From: an uncultured Candidatus Saccharibacteria bacterium
GTDB lineage: Bacteria > Patescibacteriota > Andersenbacteria > UBA10190
Length of the DNA: 57,563 nucleotides
Direction of reading: 5' to 3'
NCBI GenBank assembly: GCA_964610055.1
Contig: CAZSUC010000001.1
Location: 157,304 to 214,866 of the forward strand
Numbering within the stretch: the stretch's first letter is position 1; the number at the start of each line of letters is the position of its first letter. The position numbers were made by a program, and so were the translations under genes. The notes under the pieces were generated by a model. It was given only the letters and a program-made list of their open reading frames with translations, was not told where the DNA came from and searched no databases. Shown here piece after piece: positions 3,674 through 51,469 of this stretch.

Positions 3674-3674
3674 T

Positions 3675-3761: not shown

Positions 3762-3782
3762 GCTGCCCCACAGAATACCCAA

Positions 3783-21442: not shown

Positions 21443-21449
21443 AGTCTTC

Positions 21450-24073: not shown

Positions 24074-27000
24074 TTAGTTATTCGACAGATAATTCAAATT
24101 AATTTCACCTACTTGAACTGAATCGCTCTGGTCGGCTGTCATATGGACCTGAATGGTCACATATTCACCTGCCGTATATGTCCCGGTCGGTGTATCTGAT
24201 AATTGCGTCCAAGTACTAGCTGTTCCTGCTGCTTCTGCCGCAGTAATTCCCGCATCAGCTGCGTTGTTTGTGTCATAAAATGACACTTGAACGCTGCCAT
24301 TCGTCGCATCGGTACGTCGGCCGTAAACTTGTACTGGATTACTAGCTGCCCAACTGTCAAAATTATCCGGTACTCTCCATCTAATCCAAATGTCGTAGTC
24401 TTGGCTCGTTGATTCCGTAGTTGTCCAACTGTAATAGCTGTGCGTATCGCTCGTTCCGCAATATGACGTATTTACCGCCGGAATCCCGTTAGTTGCGTCA
24501 TTATCACAGAAATCACTTGTCATCGTTCCGCTATTGCTTGATCCGTCTCCTGATAAGGAAGCACCTTCATATTCCGGCGATAATGTCTCTTGTCGCGTTG
24601 GTCGAGCATTACCGCTGTAAGTCACTGCTTCTGTGAATTCAGACGCTGATTGGATGTATAAGCCGCGATCCCAGTTTGCTCCAATTACTAACGCGTATTC
24701 TGTCGCATCTGATCCAGCCGCCAATCCTGCGATATTAACCCCATATAACGTATCACCGCTGTCCCCGGAAGACGTCATTGCCAAGTTGATTCCCATATTT
24801 GTGTCTCCGCTAGCAGAATCACTGGCCGCGGTGTAGTTAATTTGCAAACCATCCGCTGAGCTCGTTGCGCCGTAACTCGCATTTGTAATTGTTACCATAT
24901 CGCTCGTTGGCGCTTCTATCGCCGCAATCGACAAATCCTCTCCTGCTCCTAATGACCAGTCGACATCATCATAAAATGTTGTTTTCCCATCCGCATCCAC
25001 TTTCACCACATCACTACCACCATCTTGGATCGCAAATTCTCCCGTCGAATCCAGGTTTATATCATAATCATAGGCGCCCAATACCATACTGGTTGAATTA
25101 TCCAAGTTCAAAGTATCTTCTAAATGGCTGAAATCCAGGCTATCTGCCATGACCGAGGCGCTCACCGTGTTAGTTGCCGCCACCGCCAAGTCAATCGTGC
25201 TTGTATCCGCAAATGTAATTGTTTCTCCGTCATCAATCGTTTGCGTCGTTGGCACCGTTTCATCGTCTGAAATAATGAAACTAGAGAATGCACTGCTACA
25301 ATCTGTCCATTCCATCTTTCCGGAAGTATCGCTCCATTTTAAGCAATATCCATCAACTGCCGACCCGCTAATATCCAAATCACTTTCATCGACTGCTTCA
25401 TCTGCGATTGTAACTGCTCCCGTTCCGTCCAATGAAACATCCCCGCTCATGGCTACTGGATTATAATTTGTCCCGTCCGCCACCAGGATATATCCCGCTG
25501 TATTGGTTGCCATGTATAAATCATCGCCTGAAATCGCTAAATCATCCGCAATCGTGGTTTTTGTGCCGGTATTATCAATCGTCAAATTACCGGAAGAATC
25601 AACCGTAAACCGTGAATCAACCGAATCATCCGTGTATGTAAGGCGCAGCTGCTCGGTCGTAGATAAAATTTCCAATTTCGCGTCAGGCGATGTATCGCCA
25701 ATACCTAAACTTCCGCTGCTTAAAATTGTCATCTTCGCCGCGTCTGACGGACCAATCATTAAACTATTATCTACTGCGTTAGTAATGCCGCGGCCAAATA
25801 TAAATGCACCTGTTGTTGCTGTTAATGTGTTACTAGCTCCAAATACACCATTATATGTGTGCTGAACCGCCCCACTAATAGTATTATCAGATCCAAATAT
25901 TGAGTTTCTACTAGAGTTTGTACTGCCAGAAAACGAATTATTATATCCAACAATAGAGTTTCGTTGTCCACTATTATTCACATTATCCGTATTATTAGTA
26001 CCAAAAATTGAATTCAAGTTACTAGCTGCAGAAGAACCAGTATTACCACTACCGACAGCTACCTGATTCAGCGTTAATGCTCCACCTGACGATAAGCTAG
26101 CTACTGTTGTGGTGCCATTAACAAAAGATAAGCCATTAGTTGATGCTAGAGATTTAATAAACCATGTATCTGCAGTATCATCACCGTCATCCGCATCAAG
26201 CACTAATACAGCATCGGTTCCTTCTGCTCCTTGTATCTCAAAAAGATCCTCTGGTGTCGCGGTTCCAACGCCTACCTTATTTTCATACCCACTTGCATTT
26301 ACCGCTAGCGTACTCGTGTCCACCACTAAACTGCCCAAAGTAGCCAATCCGGACGTTGTGAAATCTCCTGTTTGTCCCGAAGCTCCTAATAATGCCACAG
26401 TTCCACTCAAATTCGGCAGCGTGATTGTCTTGTCGCTTAAAGTTGCATCTGCCGCTACCAAAATTATCTCATAATCGTCTGCGGTCGCTCCTTCAAAATA
26501 CAGCGAATAATCACTCGTGTCGGCGGCCGTAAAACATGCCCCGCTCTCACATGTTCCTACTGTCTCAATATCAGCGCTCGCTAAATTAGAAATATCTGTC
26601 CAGGCCAATGTCCCGTCAGTTTGTGTGGTCAAAACATAGTCGTTGCCGCCAATCGGGCCGCTTGGCCATGTATAAGTCAGTGAATTAAACGTTGTTGTGC
26701 CTTCTACGGTTAAACCACCAGTCATACTTAAGCTGCCAGTCGTTCCATCGTCTGTTAATGTCAGTAACGTATTTGTCCCGTCATCAAAAACCAAAGTTGC
26801 TGAATCCAAGGTAATTGCATCTGCTAATTCCGTTCCGTCCACCACATCTGCAGCAATAGTTAAAGCCGTCGTGTTATTTGCTCCTAACGTCGCTGTCACA
26901 TCTCCCGTAAACGTATGTCCTGACACAATAATCGTTCCGTCTGCATCAGGTAATGTCCAAGTTCTGCCCGCTACCGCCGTTAAATCAGCAATTTGTAGTG

Positions 27001-30000
27001 TTCCGTCCCCAGTTGCATCGTTAAAGACTAAATAAGTGCCACTCGTGCCATTAAAGCACTCGCCTGTCGTGCAATCACCCACTGCTGCAATATCGCCTGC
27101 CATGCTTTCCCAAGTTAATGTCCCGCTTCCATCACTGGTTAGGACTTGCCCATCTGTGCCGTCATCCGTTGGCCACGTGTAAGTCCCTCCTCCAAACGTT
27201 GTTGTCCCGCCAACTGTTATATTCCCGCTCGCATCAATCACAAACGGCGTCGTATCCCCACTCTCATCATTCACCACCAACGAATTACCCGTCCCCGTAT
27301 TAGTAATTGAAAACACATTTGATCCTGTTACCGCTATATCTGTAGAAGCGTCTAAGGTTAAGGAATCAGCCAAATCGCTGAATCCTAACGAATCGGCCGC
27401 AATGTCTAATGTGACGGCTAATTCCTCTCCGCCCGTTCCGTTGGTAACTGTAATCTTTCCTGCTCCTGCATCTGCAATTGATCCTACATAGTCTCCTGTC
27501 GTGTCTGTACCCAAAGCCACTGTATTAGCGCCAATTGTTGTGACTCCAGCATTGCTAATTGTAATATCTCCACTCATCGCTACGCTTTCCCATGAATCTC
27601 CGTCCGCAATCAATACATTTGCATCAGTCGCTGTCGTTGTCCCTAACGTTGCTCCATTAATCTTGGCCACAGTTAGCGCCGTACTGCCGTCAGTATCTAA
27701 TGTACCGGTAGCATCGCCCGTAAATGTGTGTCCCGATAAAATCACCGTTCCGTCCGCATCTGGTAATGTCCAAGTACGATTACCCGACATGCTCGCCGAT
27801 ATAGCTAACTGTCCCGTGCCGCCATCGTCATAAAATGTTAGGTATGATCCGCCGTCTGAAGTCCCGTCAAAACAGTCTCCAGTGTCACAATTGCCAACTT
27901 TTGTCACATCTCCTGTACCGGCTCCAACACCTGTTACTGCTTGCCAGGTTAAATTCCCTGCTCCGTCCGTCACTAACACTTGTCCGCTTGATCCTCTTCC
28001 GTCCGGCCAAATATATCCGTATTGGTTAAAATACACTTTCCCGTTTGATCCCGAATCATCTTCAACTGCAAATAAGATATTCCCGCTCGGATCTTTAATT
28101 GATAGTTGAGAACCGTCCGCAATATTCAAATTTGGAGTCGTTCCTGAGAAATATAGCGTTGTCCCGTGAGTTACGTTGCCAGTTACATCAAAACAATCTC
28201 CGCTCGTACAATCTCCAACTGTATTAATGTCTCCGGCAATCCCCCCTCCTGTTATATTTGCCCAAGCCAAAGTGCCGTCTGTTTGAGCCGTTAACACGTA
28301 ATTATTACTTCCGATTGTCGTCGGCCAAGTGTAAGTTAAGCTGTTTAAGGTTGTGGTTTGACCAGTTGCAACCATTAAATCGCCGCCAACAGTCACGTCT
28401 CCAGCGCTATCAACCACAAATTCAGTTCCATTGGCATTTACTGTAAACGAATCCTCGCTGCCAGTATTCACCACGCTAATATCCGCTCCGGCTACTAACG
28501 ACGTGCCAGTTGTTGAATTGCCTACTGTCAGTGTATTGGTATCCGTTACTCCGATGGTTGTCGCCGCATCCAAAGCTAATGCGTCCTTTAACTCAGTGAA
28601 ATCAAGGCTATCAGCCGTAATATCAACCGTAATAGCTGCTCCCTCTGTTCCAGAATTATTCACTGTAATCCGGCTTGTACCGCTCACGGGTGTAATTGTT
28701 GCCACGTAATTACCTGTTGTATCAGTGCTCAGTGTTACCGAATTTGGCTGTATAGTCGTTAATCCAGCCTGCGTTAAGCTTATATCACCTGTTATTCCTC
28801 TCGTCTGCCAACTACTGCCATCACCAATCAAAATATTTCCCGCCGTTGCCGTAGCGCTGCCAATCGTAACATTCTTAATTTTATTCACTGTGACGTTGGA
28901 TAAGTACCCGGATACATCACCAGCCACACTTAAAGCGCCTTCCAAAGTACTTACTGTCGTTGAATTAACTGTTGTGACGTCATTTAAGGCACCTACGCTA
29001 ATACTTGTTAATCCGACCAGATCCGCATCCAAATTAAAGTGATTAGTGCCGTCTAGTGTAATATTTGTACCGCCATAATATGTTGGCGCTTCCGTTTCGC
29101 TTGAACATGCCCACACCGCATTTGTATCATCCCATCGTAATATCTGATCATCCGCGCATGTTCCTAACAGTTGTAATCCATTCGCTGTTAACGCCATTCC
29201 TGATGCTGTTTGCGTTTCTGTGTCGTTTACACCTGTTAATAATTGAATTGCTAAACTGCCTCCGCTCGTATCTAAGCCATTGCCTGTGTTGACTGCAATT
29301 GTCGGCGTGGCTCCTTCTCCGCTGCCGCCAGTTACCGTAATGCTGTCGTCTGCTGCGCTTAATGACGCCACGTAATTACCCGCCGTTTGCGTACCTAAAT
29401 CAATCGCATCGTTGGCAATTGTGATACTTGTTGAGCCTGTTGTTCCTAAAGTCGTGGTAGTTACTTCTCCGGTTAATTGTTGACCGCTCAAAATGATAGT
29501 TCCACTCGAATTAGGCAAAGTCCACGTTCGGTTAGACGACATTGATGATGAAATTTGAAGAGTACCCGTTCCGCCGTCATCATAAAACGTCAAAGCCGTG
29601 CCACCGTCCGAAGTCCCGTCAAAACAATCCCCGCCGGCACAATCTCCAACGCTACCCACGTCTCCAACTAATCCAGCTTCTGTTGCTGTCGACCAATTCA
29701 AAGTACCATCACCATTGCTAATTAATACTTGATTAGATGTTCCGTAAGTTGACGGCCATTCATACTCCACTGAATTTAAAGTCACGTGATTTGCTCCGCT
29801 TACATACTCTGCGCCAAATAAGATATGTCCGCTCGCGTCTTTAACATAAAAAGTAGAATTATCCGCTACTGTTAATGTTGTCCCTGATCCTGCTGCTGTG
29901 AAACAATCACCGGACGCGCAGTCTCCAACTGCTGAAATATCACCTAATCCCATTGAACCCGGATTACCCCATGTTAATCCACCTGCTCCATCAGTAGTTA

Positions 30001-33000
30001 AGAGATAATCTTCTCCTCCTGCATCGCCTGGCCAAGTGTATGTTTGGCCATTTAATGTTGTTGTGCTCCCAAAAGTTACACTTCCTGCCGCATCAATCAC
30101 AAACGGCGTCGTATCCCCACTCTCATCATTCACCACCAAAGAATTACCCGTCCCCGTATTAGTAATTGAAAACACATTTGATCCCGTTACCGCTATATCT
30201 GTAGAAGCGTCTAGGGTTAAAGCGTCTTTTAATTCACTAAAATCTAATCCGTCCGCCGTCACTGCCACTCCACTACTGCCCACAGTTAAGGTTGAATCAG
30301 CCGCTGTCACCGCTACCCCACTTGAAGTTACGCTAATACCATTACCGGCCTTAACCGATAATGTTGGCGTTGAGCCATGTGCTGGCGCGCTAATTGTATT
30401 TAAACCATTCCCGGCTGTAATACTAGCAACATAATTTCCACTCGTATCAACACTCAAAGATACCGATCCATCCGTAATGCTTGTTACTCCAGCAGACGAT
30501 AATTCCAAAACACCCGTTACTGGCACAGAGCTAAATCCAGTCCCGTCAGCTACCAAAATATTTCCGCTGTCGTTGCTGCTCATTTTAATCTGAGCCCCGA
30601 CTGTCACGTTCCCCGCTGCGTCAATTATAAAAGGTGTTGAATCACCTGATTCATCGTTCACTGTTAAGGAGCTTCCTGTTCCAGTATTAGTAATTGTTAG
30701 CGCGCTTCCTGATCCACTTTTTGCAATTGTCAGCGTATTGGCATCGGCGGCCGTTATTGTTGTTGGCGCGTCCAATGTTAATGCGTCCGCAATTTTAGAA
30801 AAATTCAAACTATCATCTGCTATCTGCAATGTCGTCCCAGATAGTTGTAATATCGATCCGTCCGGTGTACGCCATGCTGTCTGCTGAGTAGTGCCGTCCC
30901 AAGCCAATAATTGGGATGTCGAAGGGCTTGAAGGTACACCTGCTTCTAGAGAAAAAGTTACTGTATCAGTCGCTGATACAGCCGTCGCTAAACCAGTGCC
31001 TGCCACAAAAGTTAGTTCGTCATTACTGTCAATATCTTCACTCGTTGTTCCGTCTGTTATTGAAAAGCCTTGAAAGCCTGTCGCGTTACAGTCTTGCCAA
31101 GTAAATCCTCCAGTTGAGCTATTGTAAATTAAACAATAACCATTTGACGGAGAGTTAGAGGCTAATAGCATTGATTCTTCAATTGCATCTGCTTGAATTG
31201 TTAATGCTCCAGACGTACTAATAGTTGCATCTCCGCTTACTACGGCTGAATTCCATTGGCTTCCATTTCCAACTAATACCGCGCCACTACTAGCAGTTGT
31301 TGTACCTAACGTTGCGCCGTTTATTTTTGCTACACTAACTGACGTACTCCCGCTCGTTGATAAGGTGCCAGTTAAATCTCCAATTAAATTATGTCCTGAT
31401 AAAATAACTGTTCCGCTCGCATTTGGTAATACGATATTTCGATTTGCGTCTGCATCGGCTGAAGACAGATTAATTGTATAACTGCCTGCTGAAGGACCTT
31501 TAAAGTACAAACTATCCGAACCAGTTGCATCAACCGTAAAACAACTACCCGTATCGCATGTCCCAACATCGCGAATATCTCCCGTCACACCCGCTGCGCT
31601 TGGATTTATCCATGTTAATTGTCCTGAACCGTTAGTTGCTAATATGAAGTTATTGTCTCCGCTCGCTGCTGGCCAAGTATAGGTTAAATTATTTAATGTT
31701 GTTGTGCCTCCAACCGTTAAATCACCGTCTTCATCTATTTCAAATACCGATGTATTACTTGTTGGTGTCCCTTTCGCTATCCCGAACAAAGCCTGATTAG
31801 CGCTTGGTGTAGCCCCAACTAAAACTTCAAACATTGGAATATTAACATTTGAAGAAGATGTATTTTCTGTTTGAAAAACTAATCTGCTATTGCTATCTTT
31901 CCCGTATTCAATGCTCCAATCTGCATCGCTCCCTAAGTTTAAAGCCACATCATCAGCAATTGTCCATTCGCCTGTTATTGTTTCTGCGTCATCGTCAAAA
32001 ATAGCCGCTTCAATCGTATTTTCAGTGGTTGCATCTATTGTTGTGAGTCCATTTATAGCTGTAACGGAATTTAATTCGCTTGCAATCGAAAATTCAGTTC
32101 CGTCCAGTTCTAAGTCATCCCCGGCCGTATAGGCTGTATCGGTGCTACTAATAGTTAAAGTTCCGGTAGTCTTATTCAAAGATACCGTTGTAGCGCCTTC
32201 TGAGGCGACTGTCAGCACTTCATCGGCACTATTAGCAGTAAATGTATCTGTGCCAACTTTAATTGCTTGTAGGGCATTCTGAGGCGTTATATCTTGCCCC
32301 ATTGCTGTGTTGCTAATGGTTAATCCATTAATCTCAATTCCTTCACCTGCTTGAAATTGGATATCTCCAGTTTGTCCTTGTACGGAATTTACGACATTAG
32401 ACGCAAAAATTCGTCCATTACCCAGATTTATATCAATTCCTTCACCAGTAACATTGCCTTGTAACGTTAACTCGCCCTCCACTTGCATTTGATCATTGAT
32501 TAACGTTGGAACGTTAACTTCAAAAAATCTATCCAGTTCTTCTGTTGTTAAAGCCAAAACTCTAGGATTTTTATTATTCTCATCGCCATATGCCAAACGA
32601 GTTTCTTCTGTTGGAATCATCTCTTCCTCTAATCCAAACCACTCATTCAAATAAGATAATTTATTGCTAAATGAAGCACCGGATAGCTTCATTAAATGCA
32701 ATGAAGTCGTTACTAATATTCCAATCGCAAATAAAGACAGTACTGCTGGAGCTAATCGTAAGCGATGATGGGCAGTCGTTGCTGGTATTTGCCGATGATA
32801 TTTCTGATTTACTTCATTCTCATTAAAAGGTGAATAATATGTCTTAGTTTGATACTTACTTTGAGCAACCGTCTCATTAGCTAAAATAGGATCATTATTA
32901 CTGGTCTGTTTCTGCCAAGTTGCTAGATACGTCGGTGAGAACACTACTAAATCATCTTCAACTTTCGATAAAGATTTAATTTTTTGGTTAGACTCCTGCA

Positions 33001-33433
33001 ATGCTGTTTCTATAGGCAAAATTTCCTTTGAAATATTTTCCTCTTTGAGCGGTATTGCCTGTTCTGTTGTCTTCTCTGGATTTAAAAATGCCTCTAAAAC
33101 TGTCTGCGTATAAAGTCTTTCTCCATTATCATCTCTTAACGGAGATATTTTTCCTTGCGTTTCATATCTACGCAAAGTACTAGTTGAGATATTTAACTGT
33201 TTTGCCGCCTCAGAAATAGTAAGAGGGCGGTTATTTTTGTACCTTTCTAATTCAATTACGGAAAATAATCTGTGTCCGCCATCTGATCGTTGAGCTGTAA
33301 TTATCCCCTTTTTCTCCCATCTTCTTACAGTATCCACAGATACACCTAAAATTTCGGCAGCGCGCCGAATTGAGACAAAATCGCCCTTTAATGGTGTTTC
33401 TTGGGGCATGAAGGAAGGATTAATCCTAGGCAT
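24074..33433 (-). CDS. Giant (3119 aa) protein: two N-terminal MerR/excisionase-type HTH domains, one TM helix, ~2870-aa repetitive ectodomain
   Basis: aa ~19-66: VSIRRAAEILGVSVDTVRRWEKKGIITAQRSDGGHRLF. aa ~71-116: LTISEAAKQLNISTSTLRRYETQGKISPLRDDNGERLYT. TM LAPAVLSLFAIGILVTTSLHLM at aa ~226-247. Then come repeated modules (..TYTWP....G..L.....G.L.W, VG[DT]C..G.CF, TLP..[SD]GT[IV]). The ORF is uninterrupted over 9.4 kb. Confidence 0.9.
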   Translation of the reverse strand: MPRINPSFMPQETPLKGDFVSIRRAAEILGVSVDTVRRWEKKGIITAQRSDGGHRLFSVIELERYKNNRPLTISEAAKQLNISTSTLRRYETQGKISPLRDDNGERLYTQTVLEAFLNPEKTTEQAIPLKEENISKEILPIETALQESNQKIKSLSKVEDDLVVFSPTYLATWQKQTSNNDPILANETVAQSKYQTKTYYSPFNENEVNQKYHRQIPATTAHHRLRLAPAVLSLFAIGILVTTSLHLMKLSGASFSNKLSYLNEWFGLEEEMIPTEETRLAYGDENNKNPRVLALTTEELDRFFEVNVPTLINDQMQVEGELTLQGNVTGEGIDINLGNGRIFASNVVNSVQGQTGDIQFQAGEGIEINGLTISNTAMGQDITPQNALQAIKVGTDTFTANSADEVLTVASEGATTVSLNKTTGTLTISSTDTAYTAGDDLELDGTEFSIASELNSVTAINGLTTIDATTENTIEAAIFDDDAETITGEWTIADDVALNLGSDADWSIEYGKDSNSRLVFQTENTSSSNVNIPMFEVLVGATPSANQALFGIAKGTPTSNTSVFEIDEDGDLTVGGTTTLNNLTYTWPAASGDNNFILATNGSGQLTWINPSAAGVTGDIRDVGTCDTGSCFTVDATGSDSLYFKGPSAGSYTINLSSADADANRNIVLPNASGTVILSGHNLIGDLTGTLSTSGSTSVSVAKINGATLGTTTASSGAVLVGNGSQWNSAVVSGDATISTSGALTIQADAIEESMLLASNSPSNGYCLIYNSSTGGFTWQDCNATGFQGFSITDGTTSEDIDSNDELTFVAGTGLATAVSATDTVTFSLEAGVPSSPSTSQLLAWDGTTQQTAWRTPDGSILQLSGTTLQIADDSLNFSKIADALTLDAPTTITAADANTLTIAKSGSGSALTITNTGTGSSLTVNDESGDSTPFIIDAAGNVTVGAQIKMSSNDSGNILVADGTGFSSVPVTGVLELSSAGVTSITDGSVSLSVDTSGNYVASITAGNGLNTISAPAHGSTPTLSVKAGNGISVTSSGVAVTAADSTLTVGSSGVAVTADGLDFSELKDALTLDASTDIAVTGSNVFSITNTGTGNSLVVNDESGDTTPFVIDAAGSVTFGSTTTLNGQTYTWPGDAGGEDYLLTTDGAGGLTWGNPGSMGLGDISAVGDCASGDCFTAAGSGTTLTVADNSTFYVKDASGHILFGAEYVSGANHVTLNSVEYEWPSTYGTSNQVLISNGDGTLNWSTATEAGLVGDVGSVGDCAGGDCFDGTSDGGTALTFYDDGGTGTLQISSSMSSNRTWTLPNSSGTIILSGQQLTGEVTTTTLGTTGSTSITIANDAIDLGTQTAGNYVASLSAADDSITVTGGSGEGATPTIAVNTGNGLDTSGGSLAIQLLTGVNDTETQTASGMALTANGLQLLGTCADDQILRWDDTNAVWACSSETEAPTYYGGTNITLDGTNHFNLDADLVGLTSISVGALNDVTTVNSTTVSTLEGALSVAGDVSGYLSNVTVNKIKNVTIGSATATAGNILIGDGSSWQTRGITGDISLTQAGLTTIQPNSVTLSTDTTGNYVATITPVSGTSRITVNNSGTEGAAITVDITADSLDFTELKDALALDAATTIGVTDTNTLTVGNSTTGTSLVAGADISVVNTGSEDSFTVNANGTEFVVDSAGDVTVGGDLMVATGQTTTLNSLTYTWPTTIGSNNYVLTAQTDGTLAWANITGGGIAGDINTVGDCTSGDCFDVTGNVTHGTTLYFSGTTPNLNIADGSQLSIKDPSGNILFAVEDDSGSNGKVYFNQYGYIWPDGRGSSGQVLVTDGAGNLTWQAVTGVGAGTGDVTKVGNCDTGDCFDGTSDGGSYLTFYDDGGTGQLAISASMSGNRTWTLPDADGTVILSGHTFTGDATGTLDTDGSTALTVAKINGATLGTTTATDANVLIADGDSWESVAMSGDITISNAGVTTIGANTVALGTDTTGDYVGSIADAGAGKITVTNGTGGEELAVTLDIAADSLGFSDLADSLTLDASTDIAVTGSNVFSITNTGTGNSLVVNDESGDTTPFVIDASGNITVGGTTTFGGGTYTWPTDDGTDGQVLTSDGSGTLTWESMAGDIAAVGDCTTGECFNGTSGTYLVFNDATGDGTLQIADLTAVAGRTWTLPDADGTIIVSGHTFTGDVTATLGANNTTALTIAADVVDGTELADAITLDSATLVFDDGTNTLLTLTDDGTTGSLSMTGGLTVEGTTTFNSLTYTWPSGPIGGNDYVLTTQTDGTLAWTDISNLASADIETVGTCESGACFTAADTSDYSLYFEGATADDYEIILVAADATLSDKTITLPNLSGTVALLGASGQTGDFTTSGLATLGSLVVDTSTLAVNASGYENKVGVGTATPEDLFEIQGAEGTDAVLVLDADDGDDTADTWFIKSLASTNGLSFVNGTTTVASLSSGGALTLNQVAVGSGNTGSSAASNLNSIFGTNNTDNVNNSGQRNSIVGYNNSFSGSTNSSRNSIFGSDNTISGAVQHTYNGVFGASNTLTATTGAFIFGRGITNAVDNSLMIGPSDAAKMTILSSGSLGIGDTSPDAKLEILSTTEQLRLTYTDDSVDSRFTVDSSGNLTIDNTGTKTTIADDLAISGDDLYMATNTAGYILVADGTNYNPVAMSGDVSLDGTGAVTIADEAVDESDLDISGSAVDGYCLKWSDTSGKMEWTDCSSAFSSFIISDDETVPTTQTIDDGETITFADTSTIDLAVAATNTVSASVMADSLDFSHLEDTLNLDNSTSMVLGAYDYDINLDSTGEFAIQDGGSDVVKVDADGKTTFYDDVDWSLGAGEDLSIAAIEAPTSDMVTITNASYGATSSADGLQINYTAASDSASGDTNMGINLAMTSSGDSGDTLYGVNIAGLAAGSDATEYALVIGANWDRGLYIQSASEFTEAVTYSGNARPTRQETLSPEYEGASLSGDGSSNSGTMTSDFCDNDATNGIPAVNTSYCGTSDTHSYYSWTTTESTSQDYDIWIRWRVPDNFDSWAASNPVQVYGRRTDATNGSVQVSFYDTNNAADAGITAAEAAGTASTWTQLSDTPTGTYTAGEYVTIQVHMTADQSDSVQVGEINLNYLSNN
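27230..27361 (-). repeat. Copy A of a 132-nt near-identical (129/132) dispersed intragenic repeat
   Basis: Aligns to 30089-30220 at a fixed offset of 2859 nt, with mismatches only at 27281, 27326 and 27355. Encodes LTLDASTDIAVTGSNVFSITNTGTGNSLVVNDESGDTTPFVIDA. Confidence 0.85.
30089..30220 (-). repeat. Copy B of the 132-nt near-identical intragenic repeat
   Basis: See copy A. The surrounding repeat units are much more diverged at the DNA level. Confidence 0.85.
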
Positions 33434-34010
33434 TGGTTGCTTAAAAATATAAGCAAACCTATGTCATGCATAATTATATCATATCTAAATCCCTAAATTA
33501 ATAACTCAATCATAACAACTAATCCTGGTATTTAATCCAACTTTTGTTGGTAATAAATATTAATTTTTAAGTAGTTATATTTGTTTATATCTCTCATTCT
33601 TCGCGGTTTTAATAGGCAATTAACATTGTCCGCACTTTAATTTAATTATCGCTTAATCTCTTCTTGGTTATTCTTGTTCCTCCTTAAGACAGATAAAAAA
33701 ACAGTCATGGTTACATAAGCTGGTATAGCTATAATTTAATCGTCATCAGCTTGATCTCTGTAATGTATAATTATGTTTCTATTTGATTTCGCCCAAGCCT
33801 GTTTTTTACTAACGACTAGACCGAACCAAAACTAGGCATTAGTTATCACTCTTTCTAAAATATATGCAAATGCATACCAAATAAGCTATGCATAAATTGT
33901 CAGATGCCAAAATATCTTGCGGACACAAAAATTACTCACTGGTTTTACTGCTAATAAATAATATTATTGGCGCATTATCTTTTATATCCAGGAAAGATTA
34001 TAATATACAC

Positions 34011-34811
34011 ATGAAATCCTTCGTGCGGATCTTTGGTGTTTATTTCACTCTCGCAGTTGTTTTAGGGCTTGCACCGTGGTTGGTAAAAGCTCAAGTTTTA
34101 CGCGGGTTACCCGGTTTAGCTGAATACGTTAACCTTGAAGAAAGTGACGTTCAAAACGGCTATTTAGTCGCTCTAAATGAGGGCAAGTATCAACTCGCTT
34201 CCGAAGAATACTCTCCCTATCTTTATGGCGTTGTTGCGCTTAATCCTGCTGTCGCTGTTAGTCAAATCGGTCATCAAAATGCTTATCCGGTCGTTACGTC
34301 TGGGTCATCAGAAGTCATAGTTTCAGCTGCTAACGGCACTATTGCTCCTGGTGATTACATTACTAGCTCTACTACGCCTGGCGTTGGAATGAAAGCCAGT
34401 GAAGCCGGATTCGTTATTGGGATCGCCCAAGCTGAATATACTAACACTAATGAGCCAGGACTAATTACAGTTGTTATTGATTCAAAGTTTATTAGTTCAT
34501 TAAGCAATGAACAGCTCTCAGCTCGAGCCTTTGCTGCTCAATTTCAAAATGCCTTCTCTATTGGTATGCGCGCCGCTGCTAGCGAACCTAATACCGCTTT
34601 ACGATATGGGGCCGCCGCTTTAGTTCTTATTATTTCAATTACAGTTGGTTTTCTAGTTTTTGGCCGAGCTGCTACTAACGGCATTGTTGCCGTCGGCCGC
34701 AATCCTCTGGCGCGCAAATCAATCTTCTTAGCCATTGCTTTTAATATTGGTATTACTGTTGTTTTTGCTGCTGTTGGTCTCATACTGGCTCTCATTATTC
34801 TCGCGCTGTAA
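34011..34811 (+). CDS. Signal-peptide protein with an extracytoplasmic beta-rich domain and a C-terminal two-helix hairpin resembling an F-ATPase c subunit (RNP loop, no acidic residue)
   Basis: The start was chosen at MKSFVRIFGVYFTLAVVLGLAPWLVKAQ (signal-peptide-like); the track ORF begins at 33888. The C-terminus is ..AALVLIISITVGFLVFGRAATNGIVAVGRNPLARKSIFLAIAFNIGITVVFAAVGLILALIILAL. It is the first gene of the atp cluster, 9 nt upstream of the next gene. Confidence 0.6.
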   Translation: MKSFVRIFGVYFTLAVVLGLAPWLVKAQVLRGLPGLAEYVNLEESDVQNGYLVALNEGKYQLASEEYSPYLYGVVALNPAVAVSQIGHQNAYPVVTSGSSEVIVSAANGTIAPGDYITSSTTPGVGMKASEAGFVIGIAQAEYTNTNEPGLITVVIDSKFISSLSNEQLSARAFAAQFQNAFSIGMRAAASEPNTALRYGAAALVLIISITVGFLVFGRAATNGIVAVGRNPLARKSIFLAIAFNIGITVVFAAVGLILALIILAL

Positions 34812-34820
34812 AATATCTTT

Positions 34821-35561
34821 ATGAATCGTATGTCTGATACATCCAGTTCCGCTCAAGAAGCTGCTGATAAGTTATCGCGCAATCTTGCTGGTATGGAACA
34901 AGATATTCGCACTGCTTTTGAATCAGCTTTGGGCCGTGTTTTAGATGATTTACAAACCAGCACTAATGCACGTGTTGACCGAGCTCTTTCTCGCTATGAG
35001 CAAGAGCTATCTTCTACCGTTGCTGCTGCTAAAGCAAAAATATTAGGCCAGGCTGAATCTTTTTCAACAGATGCACAGTCTCGTATTGTGTCTATTGAAC
35101 GAACTGCCTCTGATCGTATTGAGGAAGCAACTGCTGGTTTTGAAAAAACACTTCAACGAATTCAGACGTTACTCTCAACCTATTCTCAACAATTAGACGA
35201 GCATGCTCAAAAACAAGTTGAAATCGTCTTAAAAGACTTCCAATCTCACCTTTTGGACACTTTAAAGCAAGTCGATGCCCATACTGACACTGAAATCACT
35301 ACTTTTATTGAAGCCGCTAAAGAACAAACTATTAATCTCGAAAAAACTGCTCATGAACAATTTGCTCAAGAAGCTCAAAAATACGCCTCCTCACTTCTTA
35401 CTGCCAAAAACGACATTCTAGCTAAATACGAAAATCATTTACAACAAGCCTTACCTCAAACAATTTCTGATTCCTTACGTAAAACGCTTACTCCGCAACA
35501 ACAACAAGAACTTGTTATGGATGCTCTTAATCAATTAAAACAGGATTCATGGGCGCAGTAG
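34821..35561 (+). CDS. Soluble all-helical coiled-coil protein in the operon position of ATPase subunit b (no TM helix)
   Basis: 246 aa, rich in A/Q/E/K/L/T with heptad-like character throughout and no hydrophobic segment. Overlaps the delta gene by 13 nt. Confidence 0.65.
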   Translation: MNRMSDTSSSAQEAADKLSRNLAGMEQDIRTAFESALGRVLDDLQTSTNARVDRALSRYEQELSSTVAAAKAKILGQAESFSTDAQSRIVSIERTASDRIEEATAGFEKTLQRIQTLLSTYSQQLDEHAQKQVEIVLKDFQSHLLDTLKQVDAHTDTEITTFIEAAKEQTINLEKTAHEQFAQEAQKYASSLLTAKNDILAKYENHLQQALPQTISDSLRKTLTPQQQQELVMDALNQLKQDSWAQ

Positions 35562-36019
35562 CTGACCAAATCCTCCCCTTTCGGGTTATTCTGGCTGCTG
35601 ATGCCACTTTTTTTTCCGTTCGCTTAGATCAAGCCTATAACGCTCTCTTCTCTTTAAAAAAAGATTGGCGCCCGGTAATTGCTGATTTATTCTCTGTTAG
35701 TGAATATCAGCATATTTTTCGTAATTTAAATATTACTGATAAAACTTCTCCTTCCGAAGTCGTAGACGTTATTCAAAACATGCAGTCGGCCCTAGCAGCT
35801 TTGCCGGTCATTGATCTAAAACTCGCTTTTTTGCCCTCTCGATCATTCTCTGAGCAATTAGTAGATTGGTTTGATCAGTATGGTCCTGGGCCCGGACGTT
35901 TAAATTTAATTTTTGATCCTACCCTAATTGGCGGTCTGTCAGTTGGTTATCTTGGACGCTTATACGACTATTCCCTATCCAAACATCTTTCTTATGATGG
36001 ATTATCAACAATATCGTAA
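35549..36019 (+). CDS. atpH: F-type ATPase subunit delta (OSCP-like), short and divergent
   Basis: The C-terminal signature ..LIFDPTLIGGLSVGYLGRLYDYSLSKHL matches the V.DP.LIGG..V..G....D.S....L motif of delta/OSCP. The gene sits directly before alpha. Confidence 0.7.
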   Translation: MGAVADQILPFRVILAADATFFSVRLDQAYNALFSLKKDWRPVIADLFSVSEYQHIFRNLNITDKTSPSEVVDVIQNMQSALAALPVIDLKLAFLPSRSFSEQLVDWFDQYGPGPGRLNLIFDPTLIGGLSVGYLGRLYDYSLSKHLSYDGLSTIS

Positions 36020-37472
36020 AGAATCAAGCGAATACGGAGTTTTAGCAGAGCTTAAGCATCCGCTCGCTTTTGTTCGCGGATTACCAGAGGTCGCGGTTGG
36101 AGAAGTCGTGGTGTTTGAAAATGGTATTACTGGGCAGGTAACCGCTTTGCAAGCTGAATTTGTGGAAGTGCTGGTGTTGTCCAGCGGTCGTCTCGTGCCC
36201 GGAACAGAAGTCGTTCGCACTAATACTCAGCTTTCTGTTAAAGTTGGCCAATATCTTCAGGGTGCAGCCATTAATCCCCTCGGACAATCCTTATTTCCTG
36301 ATAATCCTGTTGTGGTATCCGACGATGCCACTGACCGTGTAACTGATATCAATCCTCCTCATATTAGCCATCGTACCGCTATTAAAACACCATTTTTAAC
36401 CGGTACTAGTGTTACCGACCTACTTTTACCTCTCGGACGTGGTCAACGTCAAGCCGTTCTTGGTGATCCTACAACTGGAAAAAATTCATTCTTATTAACT
36501 ACAGTTAAAGCTCACGCCACTCACGGCAAGGTTGTTTACGCTATGATTGGCAAGCCGTGGAATGATATTCGCAAAGTATATAATTTCATTGCCGAATCGC
36601 CTAATAAAGACAACATCACGTTAGTTGCAACAAGCGCGGAAGATATTATTAGCCTTATTTGCCAAACTCCGTTTACTGCTATGACTATTGCGGAATATTG
36701 GCGCGATCAAGGCGAAGATGTTGTCATTATTTTCGACGATTTATCCACGCACGCGCGTTTTTATCGAGAAGTTGGCTTATTAGCACGTCATTTCCCGGCT
36801 CGTGAGTCTTACCCTGGTGATATTTTCCATTTGCATGCTCGTCTTCTGGAGCGCGGCGGTAATTTTATTCATCCTGACAAAGGCGAATCCTCCATTACTT
36901 GCTTGCCTGTTGGCGAGACTGTGCGCGGAGAATTAACTGGTTACATTGTTTCTAACTTAATTGGTATTACAGACGGCCATCTTCTGTTTGATGAAACTAT
37001 TTTTAGCCAAGGACGTCGCCCTGCTATCGATGTTTCTTTATCTGTTACTCGTGTTGGTGGACACACTCAAAGTCCTTTAATTCGTGCTTTGCACCGCAAA
37101 TTAGTGGTTTTAATGAATAAACATGAAGAAGCTCAAGGATACACCCATTTTGGAGCTGAATTACCGGAAGCCATGCAACGCATTCTTGATGCTGGTGATT
37201 GTTTGTTAGAGTTCCTTTCACAACCGCTCTTCTTTACTGTTCCCTACTCTGTGCAAGTGGTTTTCTCTGCCATGATTTGGATGGGCTGGATGAATCAGCA
37301 TAAAACTGAAATCCCCGCTTGGCGAAATAACCTATCTGCTGCCTATAATCAAGATGGAAATAAACAAATACTAGATGCTCTGCTAGAGCCTAAATCATTA
37401 GATGAATTTGTCCAAAAACTTGCCGCGAGTCGCGAGCACCTTCTGGGGCTATGCCAGGCGTCCAAGACATAA
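35994..37472 (+). CDS. atpA: F-type ATPase subunit alpha (Walker A variant GDPTTGKN)
   Basis: LLPLGRGQRQAVLGDPTTGKNS, IFDDLSTHARFYREV.LL..R.P.RE.YPGDIFHLHARLLER, ITDGHL.F, SLSVTRVGG. The start was placed at the MM codons 35994/35997; the track ORF starts at 35928, inside atpH. Confidence 0.9.
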   Translation: MMDYQQYRKESSEYGVLAELKHPLAFVRGLPEVAVGEVVVFENGITGQVTALQAEFVEVLVLSSGRLVPGTEVVRTNTQLSVKVGQYLQGAAINPLGQSLFPDNPVVVSDDATDRVTDINPPHISHRTAIKTPFLTGTSVTDLLLPLGRGQRQAVLGDPTTGKNSFLLTTVKAHATHGKVVYAMIGKPWNDIRKVYNFIAESPNKDNITLVATSAEDIISLICQTPFTAMTIAEYWRDQGEDVVIIFDDLSTHARFYREVGLLARHFPARESYPGDIFHLHARLLERGGNFIHPDKGESSITCLPVGETVRGELTGYIVSNLIGITDGHLLFDETIFSQGRRPAIDVSLSVTRVGGHTQSPLIRALHRKLVVLMNKHEEAQGYTHFGAELPEAMQRILDAGDCLLEFLSQPLFFTVPYSVQVVFSAMIWMGWMNQHKTEIPAWRNNLSAAYNQDGNKQILDALLEPKSLDEFVQKLAASREHLLGLCQASKT

Positions 37473-38317
37473 GCAATGAGATTGTTTTTGTTAAGAACCT
37501 TCAGCGGCTAGTTTCGGCCTATGAAGAAATTGCTGTTATGCGCATCGAAAAAGTGCGTCAAAATGTTATTGCCGCCCGTTTTTTTCGCGAAGGTTTGTCT
37601 AACGTTTTTTCTGAAATTCAACTCTCCCACCAACGTGACATAGCTGTTCAGCTAGAAAAAAAGAAAAAACATCTTATCCCTCGGCAAGCCGTCGTACTTA
37701 TATCCACTAACACTCGTTTAGCTGGTTCTATCACCGCTCGAGTTACTCAAAGTTTTATTAAATATGTGAATAGTAATGATGCCGATGCCGTCGTTTTAGG
37801 GCAAATTGGTAAAGAATATTTAGCTCAAGCTGGATTTAAGCGCGAAATTGCCTTTTTCCCTCTCTTAAAAGATCAGCCTGATATGGCCGATCTCAAGCCT
37901 TTAGTTGATCATATCCTCAAGTATCAAGCTGTTACTGTGTTCTTTGGTCACTTTGAAAATCTCGTGACTCAAAAACCAGCGCAAGTAGAGTTAGGTAGCC
38001 GTCAAATATTAGACGAACTTTCTAAAATTACTTCCAAATCACCTAAAAACATTGATACTTACCTTTTTGAGCCGTCTTTAGACGAAATTATTCGGTTTTT
38101 TAATGATCAGATCTTCGGCACGCTGGTCAAAATGACCATGAGCGAGTCGTGGTTGTCTTTGCTTGGGTCTCGTATTACTGCTATGGAGCAAGCCTCTGGT
38201 AATGTTGTTAAGCGTATTCATGTTCTTGAACAGGAACATCGTCAAGCTGCTCGTCGTTTGCAAAATACTAAGCAGCGCGACCGTCTCAGTGGCATTACTT
38301 TATGGCATAATACATAG
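37451..38317 (+). CDS. atpG: F-type ATPase subunit gamma
   Basis: The N-terminal ..I..V.N.Q.....E.IA..R..K helix and the C-terminal RITAMEQASGN..K....L....RQAARRLQNTKQ pattern resemble gamma. 288 aa, between alpha and beta. Confidence 0.85.
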   Translation: MPGVQDISNEIVFVKNLQRLVSAYEEIAVMRIEKVRQNVIAARFFREGLSNVFSEIQLSHQRDIAVQLEKKKKHLIPRQAVVLISTNTRLAGSITARVTQSFIKYVNSNDADAVVLGQIGKEYLAQAGFKREIAFFPLLKDQPDMADLKPLVDHILKYQAVTVFFGHFENLVTQKPAQVELGSRQILDELSKITSKSPKNIDTYLFEPSLDEIIRFFNDQIFGTLVKMTMSESWLSLLGSRITAMEQASGNVVKRIHVLEQEHRQAARRLQNTKQRDRLSGITLWHNT

Positions 38318-38318
38318 T

Positions 38319-39770
38319 ATGGAAATCACCGGATACATCACTTCTGTTCAGGGGCAGGTTGCTCGAGTTAAATTTGAAAATCGGCGTCCTACTCGTCATG
38401 ACATTCTCATTACTCAAAATGACCACCCATCTCTTTTAGAGGTCATTGCTTCTGACACTCCGGAAACATTCTATTGTTTTATCTTAAATCCCGAACATAA
38501 TCTAGCCCGTGGCGTCGTTGTTAAAAGCCAAGGAGAGTCTCTCATGATTCCTGTTGGGCCAGGTGTTTTAGGTCGCGCCTTTGATATTTTTGGCTCCCCG
38601 CACGATGAATTAGGCGAAATTAAAAGCGATCAGCATCGTCCCCTCTTCGCCCCTCGACAACAAAATTTGAATAATATTCAAACTCCCGAAGAAGTCGTTG
38701 AGACCGGTATCAAAGCCTTAGATTTTTTTACGCCAATATTTCGTGGTGGCAAAACTGCTTTTGTCGGCGGCGCTGGTGTGGGTAAAACCGTTATTCTAAC
38801 CGCTATCATCAATCGTCTCGTTGTAGAAGCAAAATCAGATCAGAAAACTGTCGCGGTTTATAGTGCTGTTGGTGAGCGTTCCCGTGAGGCTCAAGAATTA
38901 CATTCTGATCTAAAAGAGGCCAATGCTTTGCCATATACCAGCCTTATCCTGGGTCAAATGGGCGAAAATCCTGCTTTGCGTTTTCGTACCGCTTATGCTG
39001 GTGCGACCATTGCTGAGTATTTTCGGGATGACATGTCCACCAATGTTCTCTTTTTCATGGATAATGTTTATCGCTTTGCTCAAGCTGGCCATGAATTAGC
39101 CACTATTATGGGACAAATCCCATCCGAAGATGGTTATCAACCAACTTTGTCCTCGGAAATGGCTGAGCTTAATGAGCGTCTCGTTTCTACAAAAAATGCT
39201 AGTATCACCTCCTTTTTAGCCGTTTTCGTTCCGTCCGATGATCTAACTGATTATGGAGTACGCTCTGTCTTCCCTTATATCGATAGTATTATTATCTTGT
39301 CTCGTGAAATTTTTCAGTCCGGTCGCTTACCTGCTATTGACCTTTTACGATCTACCTCTGCCGCGCTTAATCCTCTGACCATTGGCGAAAAACACTACTC
39401 AACCTATATTCGCGCTAAACAGATTATGGAAAAAGCCACTGATTTAAAGCGTATAGTATCGTTGGTCGGTGAAAGCGAACTTTCTCAGGAAAACCAGTTA
39501 GTTTATCGGCGTTCTCAGTTGATTACAAACTTTATGACACAAGATTTGTTCGTTGGCTCAACTATTTCTGAATCAGTCCGAGAGTTTATTGGACGTGAAG
39601 AAACCGTCGATGCTATCAGTGATATTATTGACGGTAAATATGACGAATTACAGCCCGATCAGTTACTTTATATCGGTAGTATCAAGAACTTAGGTAAACA
39701 AAATAAAGATCTCAAAGAAAAAGCTATTCAGCAACAAGCTGACCAAGAATCAGTCCGCACTTCTTCGTAA
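38319..39770 (+). CDS. atpD: F-type ATPase subunit beta (catalytic; intact Walker A/B)
   Basis: GGKTAFVGGAGVGKTV, VGERSREAQEL, LFFMDNVYRFAQAGHE, GYQPTL, VPSDDLTDY, GRLPAIDLL.STS. The DELSEED region is degenerate (GESELSQENQ). The start MEITGYITSVQG is at 38319, one nt after the atpG stop. Confidence 0.95.
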   Translation: MEITGYITSVQGQVARVKFENRRPTRHDILITQNDHPSLLEVIASDTPETFYCFILNPEHNLARGVVVKSQGESLMIPVGPGVLGRAFDIFGSPHDELGEIKSDQHRPLFAPRQQNLNNIQTPEEVVETGIKALDFFTPIFRGGKTAFVGGAGVGKTVILTAIINRLVVEAKSDQKTVAVYSAVGERSREAQELHSDLKEANALPYTSLILGQMGENPALRFRTAYAGATIAEYFRDDMSTNVLFFMDNVYRFAQAGHELATIMGQIPSEDGYQPTLSSEMAELNERLVSTKNASITSFLAVFVPSDDLTDYGVRSVFPYIDSIIILSREIFQSGRLPAIDLLRSTSAALNPLTIGEKHYSTYIRAKQIMEKATDLKRIVSLVGESELSQENQLVYRRSQLITNFMTQDLFVGSTISESVREFIGREETVDAISDIIDGKYDELQPDQLLYIGSIKNLGKQNKDLKEKAIQQQADQESVRTSS

Positions 39771-51399: not shown

Positions 51400-51469
51400 A
51401 ACTAGTCCCTATGCAAGTTATATTATCTAGTTATTGCGTTAACCCCCAAAGACCGTGTATTCTTCTTTC

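Follow-up and report, generated by a model that had tools for sequence, protein, structure and literature searches.

How could a DNA-binding module come to sit on the cytoplasmic end of a giant bacterial surface protein, and is it used there to bind DNA? This question is raised by an open reading frame (ORF) of 3,119 residues at 24074-33433 on the minus strand of the window, a stretch of 57,563 nucleotides from a probable Patescibacteria (CPR) bacterium. An earlier note, made from the sequence alone, described tandem MerR/excisionase-type helix-turn-helix (HTH) domains joined through a single transmembrane (TM) helix to an ectodomain of about 2,870 residues, and called this an architecture that could not be placed. 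That observation is confirmed: the reading frame contains no stop or frameshift, and profile searches support both HTH units. The interpretation offered with it is only partly supported, and the architecture proved to be neither unique to this ORF nor tied to giant size. One correction concerns the start codon. Both orthologues (loci L085 and L088) and the family profile begin at the residue equivalent to M9 (ATG at 33409-33407), indicating that M9 rather than M1 is probably the true start.

Pfam searches with residues 1-250 returned MerR (PF00376) at E=3.4e-28 and 97.6 bits (cut-off 28.2) in two stretches, the best at 72-108; MerR_1 (PF13411) at E=3.2e-20 and 72.4 bits (cut-off 21.6), also in two stretches; and HTH_17 (PF12728) at E=1.5e-18 and 67.2 bits (cut-off 27), best at 21-69. 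The NCBIfam 'excise' domain model TIGR01764 scored 54.1 bits against a cut-off of 28.8. Both units thus belong to the MerR superfamily, which is marked by a T-x-R-x-(Y/W)-E...G recognition helix and a G-x-R-x-(Y/F) wing. AlphaFold2 with an 80-sequence alignment predicted two winged-HTH units at residues 19-125 with pLDDT >93, the strand-helix-helix-hairpin-helix pattern appearing twice. Unit 1 (residues 19-69; 33227-33379, minus strand) is BldC/excisionase-like: the family profile matches BldC (6ama) at E=5e-7, the best PDB match of this unit, and Foldseek superposes it on BldC with an rmsd of 1.2-1.9 A over 45-50 residues. Unit 2, with two short helices at 110-125 (residues 71-125; 33059-33223, minus strand), is closest to the classical MerR/CueR DNA-binding domains. 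The MerR model is covered end to end (38/38 positions), the family profile matches CueR at E=4e-6, and CueR and NmlR are matched in sequence and fold.

Of the nine BldC side-chain DNA contacts K26, T27, T29, R30, W31, K33, H46, R47 and R48 (PMC5859096), six are identical in unit 1, where T35, R38, W39, K41, H54 and R55 equal T27, R30, W31, K33, H46 and R47, whereas K26, T29 and R48 are replaced by D34, R37 and L56. Across the family, invariant or near-invariant residues cluster on the recognition helices and wings (S32, D34, T35, R37, R38, W39, R49, R55, S83, R88, R89, R100, R106 and Y108), with T35, R38, W39 and R55 invariant, and the mean charge of the head is +8.4. Multi-head members also exist, P0023 with 4 double heads plus a TM and P0024 with 2. 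The relative orientation of the two units is predicted with only moderate confidence (pTM 0.60), and no solved structure was found by Foldseek that matches both as one rigid body (TMq <=0.44). TraN of plasmid pIP501 (4p0z), a small soluble protein (114-117-residue chains) that binds double-stranded DNA through two HTH motifs forming an internal dimer, aligns over 112-114 columns spanning both units, but the superposition is poor (rmsd about 11 A, TM 0.38) with 15-16% identity.

The head is followed by a linker (residues 126-223; 32765-33058, minus strand) predicted to be disordered, with pLDDT of about 45-57 over residues 126-225. This cytoplasmic linker evolves fast and varies in length across the family, the gap from head to TM ranging from 20 to 150 residues in related loci. 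The single TM helix (residues 224-251; 32681-32764, minus strand) is the only hydrophobic segment and the only Kyte-Doolittle peak above 1.5 in the whole protein, and residues 228-251 are modelled as a helix with pLDDT >90. No N-terminal signal peptide is present, and the helix is read as a type II signal anchor with the N-terminus inside. For this protein alone the flanking-charge evidence is weak (3 versus 2 K/R). Nevertheless, N-in topology is supported across the family, with a mean K+R of 3.4 on the N-flank and 2.0 on the C-flank and N>C in 88 of 118 proteins. Composition agrees, K+R being 2.1% in the ectodomain and 11-16% in the head and linker. The topology inferred in the earlier note is therefore supported, as are its two HTH units, long linker, single TM helix and extracellular remainder.

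The ectodomain (residues 252-3119; 24077-32680, minus strand) is acidic (net charge -288), Cys-paired, Thr/Ser/Gly-rich and repetitive, and holds all 22 cysteines of the protein. At least 7 copies of a module carry 'TYTWP...G.G.L.W...GDI..VG[DTN]C..G.CF'. No Pfam or PHROG family matched beyond the head, and Pfam and PHROG searches of 42 family members gave almost no families (2 Collagen, 2 Peptidase_S74, 1 LytR_C and 1 CelD_N). The best relatives in a full-length search are the proteins P0019, P0020 and P0022, all with the same head; three of the four full-length relatives carry it, and the C-terminal domain of roughly 170 residues is shared with P0020.

The possibility that an assembly or sequencing error joined a small MerR-like regulator gene to a surface-protein gene had been named in advance as a refuting condition. 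The exact protein is not on record elsewhere, and a word-indexed search with residues 1-330 found only IS607 transposase heads, which might have favoured this view. Whereas, two independent assemblies carry orthologues (L085 and L088) with the same fusion in the same genomic position, divergent from the F-type ATP synthase operon, and an artificial fusion is excluded for practical purposes. An exhaustive HMMER search found 358 cluster representatives (E<=1e-10), and almost all of the best 150 are composed of the head plus one TM at about residue 140-260. Lengths run from about 200 to 5,145 residues, or from 96 if short entries are included, and most representatives carry Patescibacteria labels. 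About 38 GTDB species representatives carry the head. The window ORF scores 152 bits (E=1e-46) over positions 1-116 of the head profile. Identity to the orthologues is 57-65% for the head, 11-23% for the linker and 22-58% for the ectodomain, and the membrane-proximal ectodomain is shared by only 11 of 106 members, indicating that the head of about 105 residues is the constrained part while ectodomains are interchangeable. A double MerR-type head, a single TM helix and a variable ectodomain define this family. Literature searches found nothing on this architecture, and its members are currently labelled 'MerR family transcriptional regulator', 'adhesin' or 'hypothetical protein'.

Compared with known proteins, the window protein departs from each in a different way. 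Classical MerR-family regulators (MerR, CueR, SoxR, BmrR, NmlR) possess a long C-terminal antiparallel coiled-coil helix (alpha-5) that makes the homodimer and an effector-binding domain for metal, drug or redox signals. Here MerR_1 matches only profile positions 2-45 of 69, disorder is predicted after residue 125, no effector domain was found in Pfam or NCBIfam, and CueR, ZntR, SoxR, MerR and the other equivalog models score 27-41 bits against cut-offs of 117-417. As with merR, however, the gene is transcribed divergently from a neighbouring operon in this lineage. BldC of Streptomyces, founder of the DNA-binding-domain-only MerR-like family, likewise lacks coiled coil and effector domain, and works as head-to-tail multimers on DNA (PMC5859096), which a covalent tandem could mimic. 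Nevertheless, BldC is a soluble protein of 68 residues that binds direct AATT-N4-C repeats, and its model (NF033787) scores 39.3 bits against a cut-off of 77; in the window protein two non-identical units are fused and membrane-tethered, and the element associated with the family is an inverted repeat with CTATGCA half-sites. The fused-homodimer HspR model (NF047377) scores 42.2 bits against a cut-off of 300. The closest analogue for how the protein would work is provided by the membrane-integrated one-component regulators ToxR, TcpP and CadC, in which an N-terminal cytoplasmic DNA-binding domain, an unstructured linker, a single TM helix and an extracytoplasmic C-terminal domain are combined and DNA is bound while the protein stays in the membrane (PMC10629549; PMC6320335). 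The layout of the window protein conforms to theirs, but no Trans_reg_C hit was found. Their DNA-binding domain is a single OmpR/PhoB-type winged helix and their periplasmic domains are small sensors, whereas here two MerR/BldC-type units are fused, the ectodomain is a repeat fibre of 2,870 residues and ectodomains across the family are unrelated; there is no sequence relationship.

If the head binds DNA, a candidate target should be sought near the genes themselves. Repeat finding and promoter scans within the window alone found nothing above chance, and k-mer sharing among the three orthologous upstream regions was uninformative; a motif emerged only when many family loci were compared. A 28-bp palindrome, CCTAnGCAnnGnTTAAnCnnTnCATAGG, with the half-site CTATGCA and usually ending 6 nt before the ATG, matches at >=16/22 positions in 21 of 48 family loci, against 3 of 240 shuffles, and starts at -33/-34 in 13 loci. 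Its core TATGCAW is about 30-fold enriched there, occurring 57 times in the 200 nt upstream of 45 family genes, compared with 8 times upstream of 202 neighbouring genes and 7.8+-2.8 times in shuffles. Of 38 hits of the palindrome in 2.24 Mb, 34 lie in family loci, and four of the five exact matches in a 596-Gb genome collection lie directly upstream of a family gene. In loci where a TTGACA-17-TATAAT promoter is visible, for instance L029, the element lies just downstream of the -10, a repressor-type position, which suggests a mode of action other than the distortion of 19-20 bp spacers by classical MerR regulators. The fixed distance from the start codon, and a right arm (TAGG) lying where a Shine-Dalgarno sequence would be, would also fit a translation-level role. 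An RNA hairpin or Shine-Dalgarno-sequestering element was rejected as the main constraint, though not excluded as a side effect, because pairing is no better than in shuffles (209 of 500 reach 73% paired), the variable pairs are mostly unpaired without covariation, and no Rfam family matched. The element thus behaves as a DNA-level palindrome.

The window itself has only a degenerate version of this element, the best match to the consensus being 14/22 at -76 from M9. TATGCAW is under-represented in the window overall (13 found against 25 expected), yet 5 of the 13 lie in the 454-bp region (33434-33887) shared with the divergent atp operon, where about 0.1 would be expected if evenly spread. 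On the minus strand, an extended -10-like TGATATAAT (33473-33481) is followed directly by TATGCATGACATAGG (33458-33472), a collapsed version of the family palindrome with its two half-sites 3 nt apart; the promoter assignment is inferred, as the promoter scan did not call it. At 33860-33894 on the plus strand, a TATGCAAATGCATA palindrome and a TATGCAT overlapping the atpB start codon (core hits at 33863, 33870, 33887 and 33888) form a candidate second binding site in front of the ATP synthase operon. The window's closest relatives have direct TGCATAGAT repeats (L088) or one right-arm copy (L085). The F-type ATP synthase operon (a, b/delta-like, alpha, gamma, beta; 33888-39770, plus strand) is a conserved neighbour, found in L085, L088 and 11 of 45 GTDB loci.

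It is proposed, with moderate confidence, that the gene encodes a membrane-tethered, probably autoregulatory DNA-binding protein. What the analysis establishes is the fused double MerR/BldC-type head on a single-pass, N-in protein with a disordered tether and an acidic repeat ectodomain, the family built on this design with interchangeable ectodomains, the conserved basic head retaining most BldC contact residues, and the specific association of family genes with the palindrome. It is inferred, from co-occurrence only, that the head binds this palindrome, and from this that the protein controls, most simply represses, its own transcription while remaining in the membrane, so that, like ToxR or CadC, it would pull its own locus to the membrane. 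In this view two heads, each contributing two different HTH units, would read the outer CTATGCA and inner GTTAAC half-sites; this four-HTH model is our own construction, and the outer half-sites in the 10-bp core CTATGCATAG are too close for two HTH units. In this lineage the motif cluster also lies in front of the ATP synthase operon, which may be co-regulated. Of the three roles suggested in the earlier note, the membrane-bound transcription factor gains real support from the conserved contact residues and the palindromic, operator-like element, while its contact dependence stays hypothetical.

Alternatively, the head may tether the nucleoid to the envelope without gene-specific regulation, anchoring chromosomal DNA, at the palindromes or non-specifically, at the base of surface structures. 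This might serve chromosome segregation or positioning in very small cells, or mechanical anchoring of a long fibre. RacA of B. subtilis, RocS of S. pneumoniae and Par of pSK1 all combine a MerR-type winged HTH with a pole or membrane anchor, DivIVA binding for RacA and an amphipathic helix for RocS (PMC4914108; PMC11500499), and RacA is among the best sequence and fold matches. Multi-head members such as P0023, with 8 HTH units plus a TM, look like multivalent DNA binders, and the conserved head with its interchangeable ectodomains is compatible with this view. The best GTDB hits all come from different genomes, which hints weakly at a low copy number. However, a generic or centromere-like tether does not predict a palindrome at a fixed, promoter-proximal position of the family's own genes. 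Those proteins have one HTH, a coiled-coil oligomerisation region and a peripheral anchor, whereas here two HTH units, a disordered linker, an integral TM helix and a huge ectodomain are found, and RacA models score 26.5 and 23.0 bits against cut-offs of 265 and 170. This reading is considered possible but unlikely.

Proteolytic release of the head, the second role suggested in the earlier note, is less likely still. In such a Notch/RsgI-style precursor, contact or load on the ectodomain would trigger intramembrane or juxtamembrane cleavage, and the soluble head would regulate genes. The long disordered linker resembles that of regulators controlled by proteolysis, short head-only entries (96-170 residues) exist, and one member (P0049) combines the head with a polytopic membrane domain and an extracytoplasmic sensor-like domain, suggesting a signalling use. 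Nevertheless, the short entries may be contig-end fragments, the linker and TM have no conserved motif that could be a cleavage site, no protease gene is a recurrent neighbour, and ToxR and CadC act without release (PMC10629549; PMC6320335).

The least supported of the three roles, and a doubtful one, is a protein-docking or sorting module that no longer binds DNA, as the RodZ HTH does with MreB, or a lineage-specific cytoplasmic handle for a secretion or localisation system, the palindrome being bound by something else or acting on translation. A conserved N-terminal module on polymorphic exported proteins is typical of trafficking domains, the right arm of the element overlaps the ribosome-binding position, and RodZ has the same overall layout of cytoplasmic HTH, linker, single type II TM helix and extracytoplasmic domain. 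However, the conserved residues are the canonical DNA-contacting Arg, Thr and Trp of the recognition helices and wings rather than a new surface, the heads are strongly basic, and they co-occur tightly with a palindromic DNA element. In addition, the RodZ HTH is Xre-type with a C-terminal DUF4115, whereas the primary assignment here is MerR-type, and no DUF4115 was found in the scan of all 3,119 residues.

A more speculative view, thought improbable, is that a covalently duplicated BldC-like head reads a dedicated palindrome at the 5' end of its own gene in a class of single-pass membrane proteins found mostly in genomes labelled Patescibacteria. As the head is the first part to leave the ribosome, and transcription and translation are coupled, it could act in cis on the very gene copy being expressed, throttling re-initiation and, once the TM helix inserts, holding the locus at the membrane (programmed transertion) while a fibre of several thousand residues is exported. 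In the lineage of this window the head would also couple cell-surface status to expression of the ATP synthase operon. Patescibacteria make up a large share of bacterial diversity, live attached to other cells and have few recognisable regulators, and almost nothing is known about how they control or anchor their surface proteins. A family present in many of their lineages (by record title) links a predicted DNA-binding head to surface proteins of every size and comes with a candidate operator; if binding holds, it would add a MerR/BldC-type branch to the short list of membrane-integrated DNA-binding proteins. The conserved adjacency to the ATP synthase operon suggests a link between surface state and energy metabolism.

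Apart from atp, the neighbours of family genes in 34 loci were heterogeneous, and the gene downstream of the window ORF is not homologous to that of L085. Extra copies of the palindrome also occur away from family genes; no convincing ORFs followed them, and two copies in locus L013 lie near tRNA genes.

The window contains one uninterrupted ORF on the minus strand (24074-33433), which encodes 3,119 aa. Pfam finds two MerR-type HTH units in the first 125 residues, with PF00376 at E=3.4e-28, PF13411 at E=3.2e-20 and PF12728 at E=1.5e-18, each with two matched stretches. The domain-level 'excise' model of NCBIfam passes its cut-off, whereas every equivalog model stays far below, including those for CueR, ZntR, SoxR, MerR, HspR, HspR fused homodimer, BldC, RacA and IS607 transposase. 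A hydropathy scan reveals a single hydrophobic segment at aa about 224-250, and everything after it is acidic (net charge -288), poor in Lys/Arg (2.1%) and holds all 22 cysteines. AlphaFold2 with an 80-sequence alignment predicted two strand-helix-helix-hairpin-helix units at aa 19-125 (pLDDT >93), a disordered stretch at 126-225 (pLDDT about 50) and a confident helix at 228-251. The observation of the earlier note, which had described tandem MerR/excisionase-type HTH domains fused through a single TM helix to an ectodomain of about 2870 aa (32693-33433), is therefore real, and its coordinates and description are correct. One correction applies, as the orthologues and the family consensus begin at the residue equivalent to M9, so that translation probably starts at 33409. 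The ectodomain (24077-32680, minus strand) has, at aa 585-2330, at least seven copies of a module with 'TYTWP...(G)QVL..DG.G.L.W' followed about 35 residues later by 'GDI..VG(D/T/N)C..G.CF', a paired-Cys motif consistent with disulfides outside the cell.

A full-length search returned four relatives, three of which (3,260, 1,912 and 2,350 aa) have the same double head, TM and giant ectodomain. The last roughly 170 residues of the window protein ('ARPTRQETLSPEYEGASLSGDGS...') are shared with the C-terminus of one relative, P0020. The closest relative, P0019, lies on a JGI contig in the same position as here, divergent from an F-type ATP synthase operon and followed 5 nt later by another large gene. 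The nearest genome in GTDB (ATP synthase beta 69% identical, next best 44%) has the same arrangement (locus L088). Three independent assemblies thus carry the fusion, and a sequencing or assembly error, which had been named beforehand as a way in which the observation could fail, is excluded for practical purposes. Between orthologues, identity differs sharply by region, being 57-65% for the head, 11-23% for the linker, about 20% for the TM and 22-58% for the ectodomain, indicating that the head is the most constrained part. The organism itself is poorly represented: ATP synthase beta has one relative at 69% identity (a MAG, JAUYKA01), and the giant protein is in no public protein collection searched. 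Context genes encoding RNase Y, ClpP, trigger factor, NusA, GyrA, H+-PPase and a pilin-like N_methyl protein show that the window is a chromosomal segment.

An exhaustive HMMER search of aa 1-330 against 1.84 billion representatives gave 1,712 hits at E<=1e-3 and 358 at E<=1e-10. In the best 150 of these, the roughly 105-aa double head sits at the N-terminus as one unit, and nearly all have exactly one hydrophobic helix at aa about 140-260. Total lengths run from 96 to 5,145 aa, and the few without a TM are mostly very short entries that may be fragments. A head released from the membrane by proteolysis, which the earlier note had listed among possible roles, remains the second of the rival explanations. 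Flanking charges favour N-in topology across the family, with K+R of 3.4 on the N-flank versus 2.0 on the C-flank and N>C in 88 of 118. The ectodomains are unrelated to one another; only 11 of 106 share the membrane-proximal region of the window protein, and Pfam recognises almost nothing in 42 members.

In addition, several variants of this architecture exist: four double heads (8 HTH) followed by one TM (P0023, a complete gene at 2467-4338 of locus L168); two double heads (P0024); twelve MerR-like HTH units in a row without a TM (P0026); a double head fused to a polytopic membrane domain of about 12 TM helices with an extracytoplasmic sensor-like insert (P0049); and single-HTH versions with giant ectodomains (loci L001, L054 and L072). 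Among GTDB species representatives, about 38 loci carry the full architecture, and their record titles name Daviesbacteria, Woesebacteria, Levyibacteriota, Chisholmbacteria, Pacebacteria, Saccharibacteria and 'Patescibacteria group'. Relatives with Saccharibacteria record titles include L008, L017, L019, L024, L025 and L033-L036. Many third-party-annotated MAG records that carry the family gene (L006, L007, L009, L011, L014, L016, L020, L029 and others), one of which is a 915-kb complete chromosome (OZ246414.1), are labelled 'uncultured Gammaproteobacteria bacterium', a title that looks wrong for these genomes. Source names for the proteins are only 'MerR family regulator', 'adhesin' or 'hypothetical', and literature searches together with a targeted reading of the Patescibacteria genetics paper found no description of this architecture.

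By sequence profile, unit 1 of the head is closest to BldC (E=5e-7) and unit 2 to CueR (E=4e-6). Foldseek matches each unit to DNA-bound MerR-type domains, namely BldC at rmsd 1.2-1.9 A, as well as NmlR, RacA, MtaN, CadR, CarH and GlnR. No solved structure was found to match both units together, and TraN, a single-chain double HTH, aligns only at rmsd 11 A. Neither a MerR coiled coil nor an effector domain is present; it is therefore not a classical MerR regulator. A pure DNA-membrane tether like RacA or RocS (PMC4914108, PMC11500499) remains the foremost rival explanation. The residues that never or rarely vary lie on the two recognition helices and wings. Of the nine BldC side chains reported to touch DNA (PMC5859096), six are identical here (T35, R38, W39, K41, H54 and R55), and four of those are invariant in the family. 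Heads are basic, with a mean net charge of +8.4. All of this points to retained DNA binding and to a common target, not one specific to each paralogue. An HTH used for protein docking remains as the last of the three rivals.

Comparison of the regions between family genes and the adjacent atp operon revealed shared 10-mers far beyond shuffles, 3 having support in at least 7 of 8 regions against a mean of 0.01. The core, TATGCAW, occurs 57 times (6.3/kb) in the 200 nt upstream of 45 family genes, with a hit in 32 of 45, but only 8 times (0.2/kb) upstream of 202 other genes in the same loci, with a hit in 7 of 202, and 7.8+-2.8 times in shuffles of the family upstream regions. This core belongs to a 28-bp imperfect palindrome, CCTAnGCAnnGnTTAAnCnnTnCATAGG (as a perfect palindrome, CCTATGCATTGCTTAAGCAATGCATAGG), which is present at >=16 of 22 specified positions in 21 of 48 family loci, against 3 of 240 shuffles. 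In 13 of those loci it starts exactly 33-34 nt before the ATG, and where a TTGACA-17-TATAAT promoter is visible, the element follows the -10. In 2.24 Mb of DNA from many phyla, 34 of 38 hits lie in family loci, and the four-head gene has a perfect copy at -33. In the whole 596-Gb genome collection, a stringent version has five exact matches, four of which lie directly upstream of a family gene. The palindrome shows no compensatory changes, as pairing equals that of shuffles and the variable pairs are mostly unpaired, and it matches no Rfam family; it behaves as a symmetric DNA site, not a selected RNA hairpin.

Single-HTH and atp-downstream members carry a related inverted repeat, ATCTATGCA...TGCATAGAT. 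Extra copies of the 28-bp palindrome lie several hundred bp upstream of family genes, at L013 5082-5109 and 5440-5467 and also at L014 5017, L008 5632/5727, L017 5060, L018 4275/4759 and L010 1420. In L013 one copy lies 35 nt upstream of the 5' end of tRNA-Arg and another between two tRNA genes. The element may mark a small regulon and not only the family gene. Outside Patescibacteria, a 17/22 match (TCTATGCATAATATAATAAATGCATAGA) lies at 6631-6658 of L078, an IS607-type locus of a Pseudanabaena MAG, 25 nt upstream of a 159-aa ORF and next to an HTH_17-type gene. It may be chance, or a hint that related HTH domains use related sites.

The window itself lacks the full palindrome, its best match being 14/22. 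The core motif is nevertheless concentrated in its control region, since five of the 13 TATGCAW in 57.5 kb lie in these 454 bp, although the motif is under-represented in the window overall (25 expected). One copy abuts an extended -10-like TGATATAAT, as TATGCATGACATAGG (33458-33481). The other four lie at 33863-33894, and include TATGCAAATGCATA just upstream of the ATP synthase operon and one overlapping the atpB start codon. Two more TATGCAW motifs (51410-51416 and 51470-51476) flank the 55-bp divergent region between the ribosomal protein S1 gene and a Lactamase_B_3 gene, the only other pair in the window.

The F-type ATP synthase operon (33888-39770, plus strand) is also a conserved neighbour. 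Eleven of 45 GTDB family loci, retrieved with only 6 kb of flank, contain it, in addition to the two orthologues of the window gene (in total L001, L011, L023, L032, L035, L039, L043, L054, L065, L072, L075, L085 and L088). The family gene is either divergent from atpB, as in the window, or just downstream of atpD in the same direction, and no other neighbour recurs comparably. Two different arrangements suggest more than inherited gene order, and there may be a functional or regulatory link.

Taken together, the analysis establishes the parts of the protein, its topology, the family and the association of the motif with family genes, while binding of the palindrome by the head is an inference. 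On that inference, the protein is a membrane-tethered and probably autoregulatory DNA-binding protein that would work like ToxR or CadC (PMC10629549, PMC6320335) but with a covalently doubled BldC-like head. It would act through two heads per 28-bp site, with unit 1 and unit 2 predicted to sit in adjacent major grooves on the outer (CTATGCA) and inner (GTTAAC) half-sites, and repression is the predicted effect. Membrane-integrated DNA-binding proteins are a known kind; the protein here is part of a widespread, unnamed family and now has a concrete candidate DNA target. The interpretation in the earlier note, which had considered a contact-dependent membrane-bound transcription factor, a head released by proteolysis or a protein-docking module, is thus partly supported.

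Three genes follow the giant gene on the same strand (18729-24068, minus strand) and may be co-transcribed with it. An 872-aa fn3 / purple-acid-phosphatase-N / redoxin protein starts 5 nt after it, followed by a Cache-domain protein and a separate HisKA-HATPase protein, which overlap each other by 4 nt, as if a sensor kinase were split in two. A second giant ORF (8518-18057, minus strand; 3,179 aa) has no HTH head, but has its own hydrophobic segment near aa 125-145, three LamG (Laminin_G_3) domains, repeated 'WDGGG..NNWS.AANW' modules and Glu-rich spacers, and a sub-threshold match to the TafC fimbrial protein. The gene downstream of the orthologue in L085 carries a similar 'GGGEDNRWSTPANWSDD' motif.
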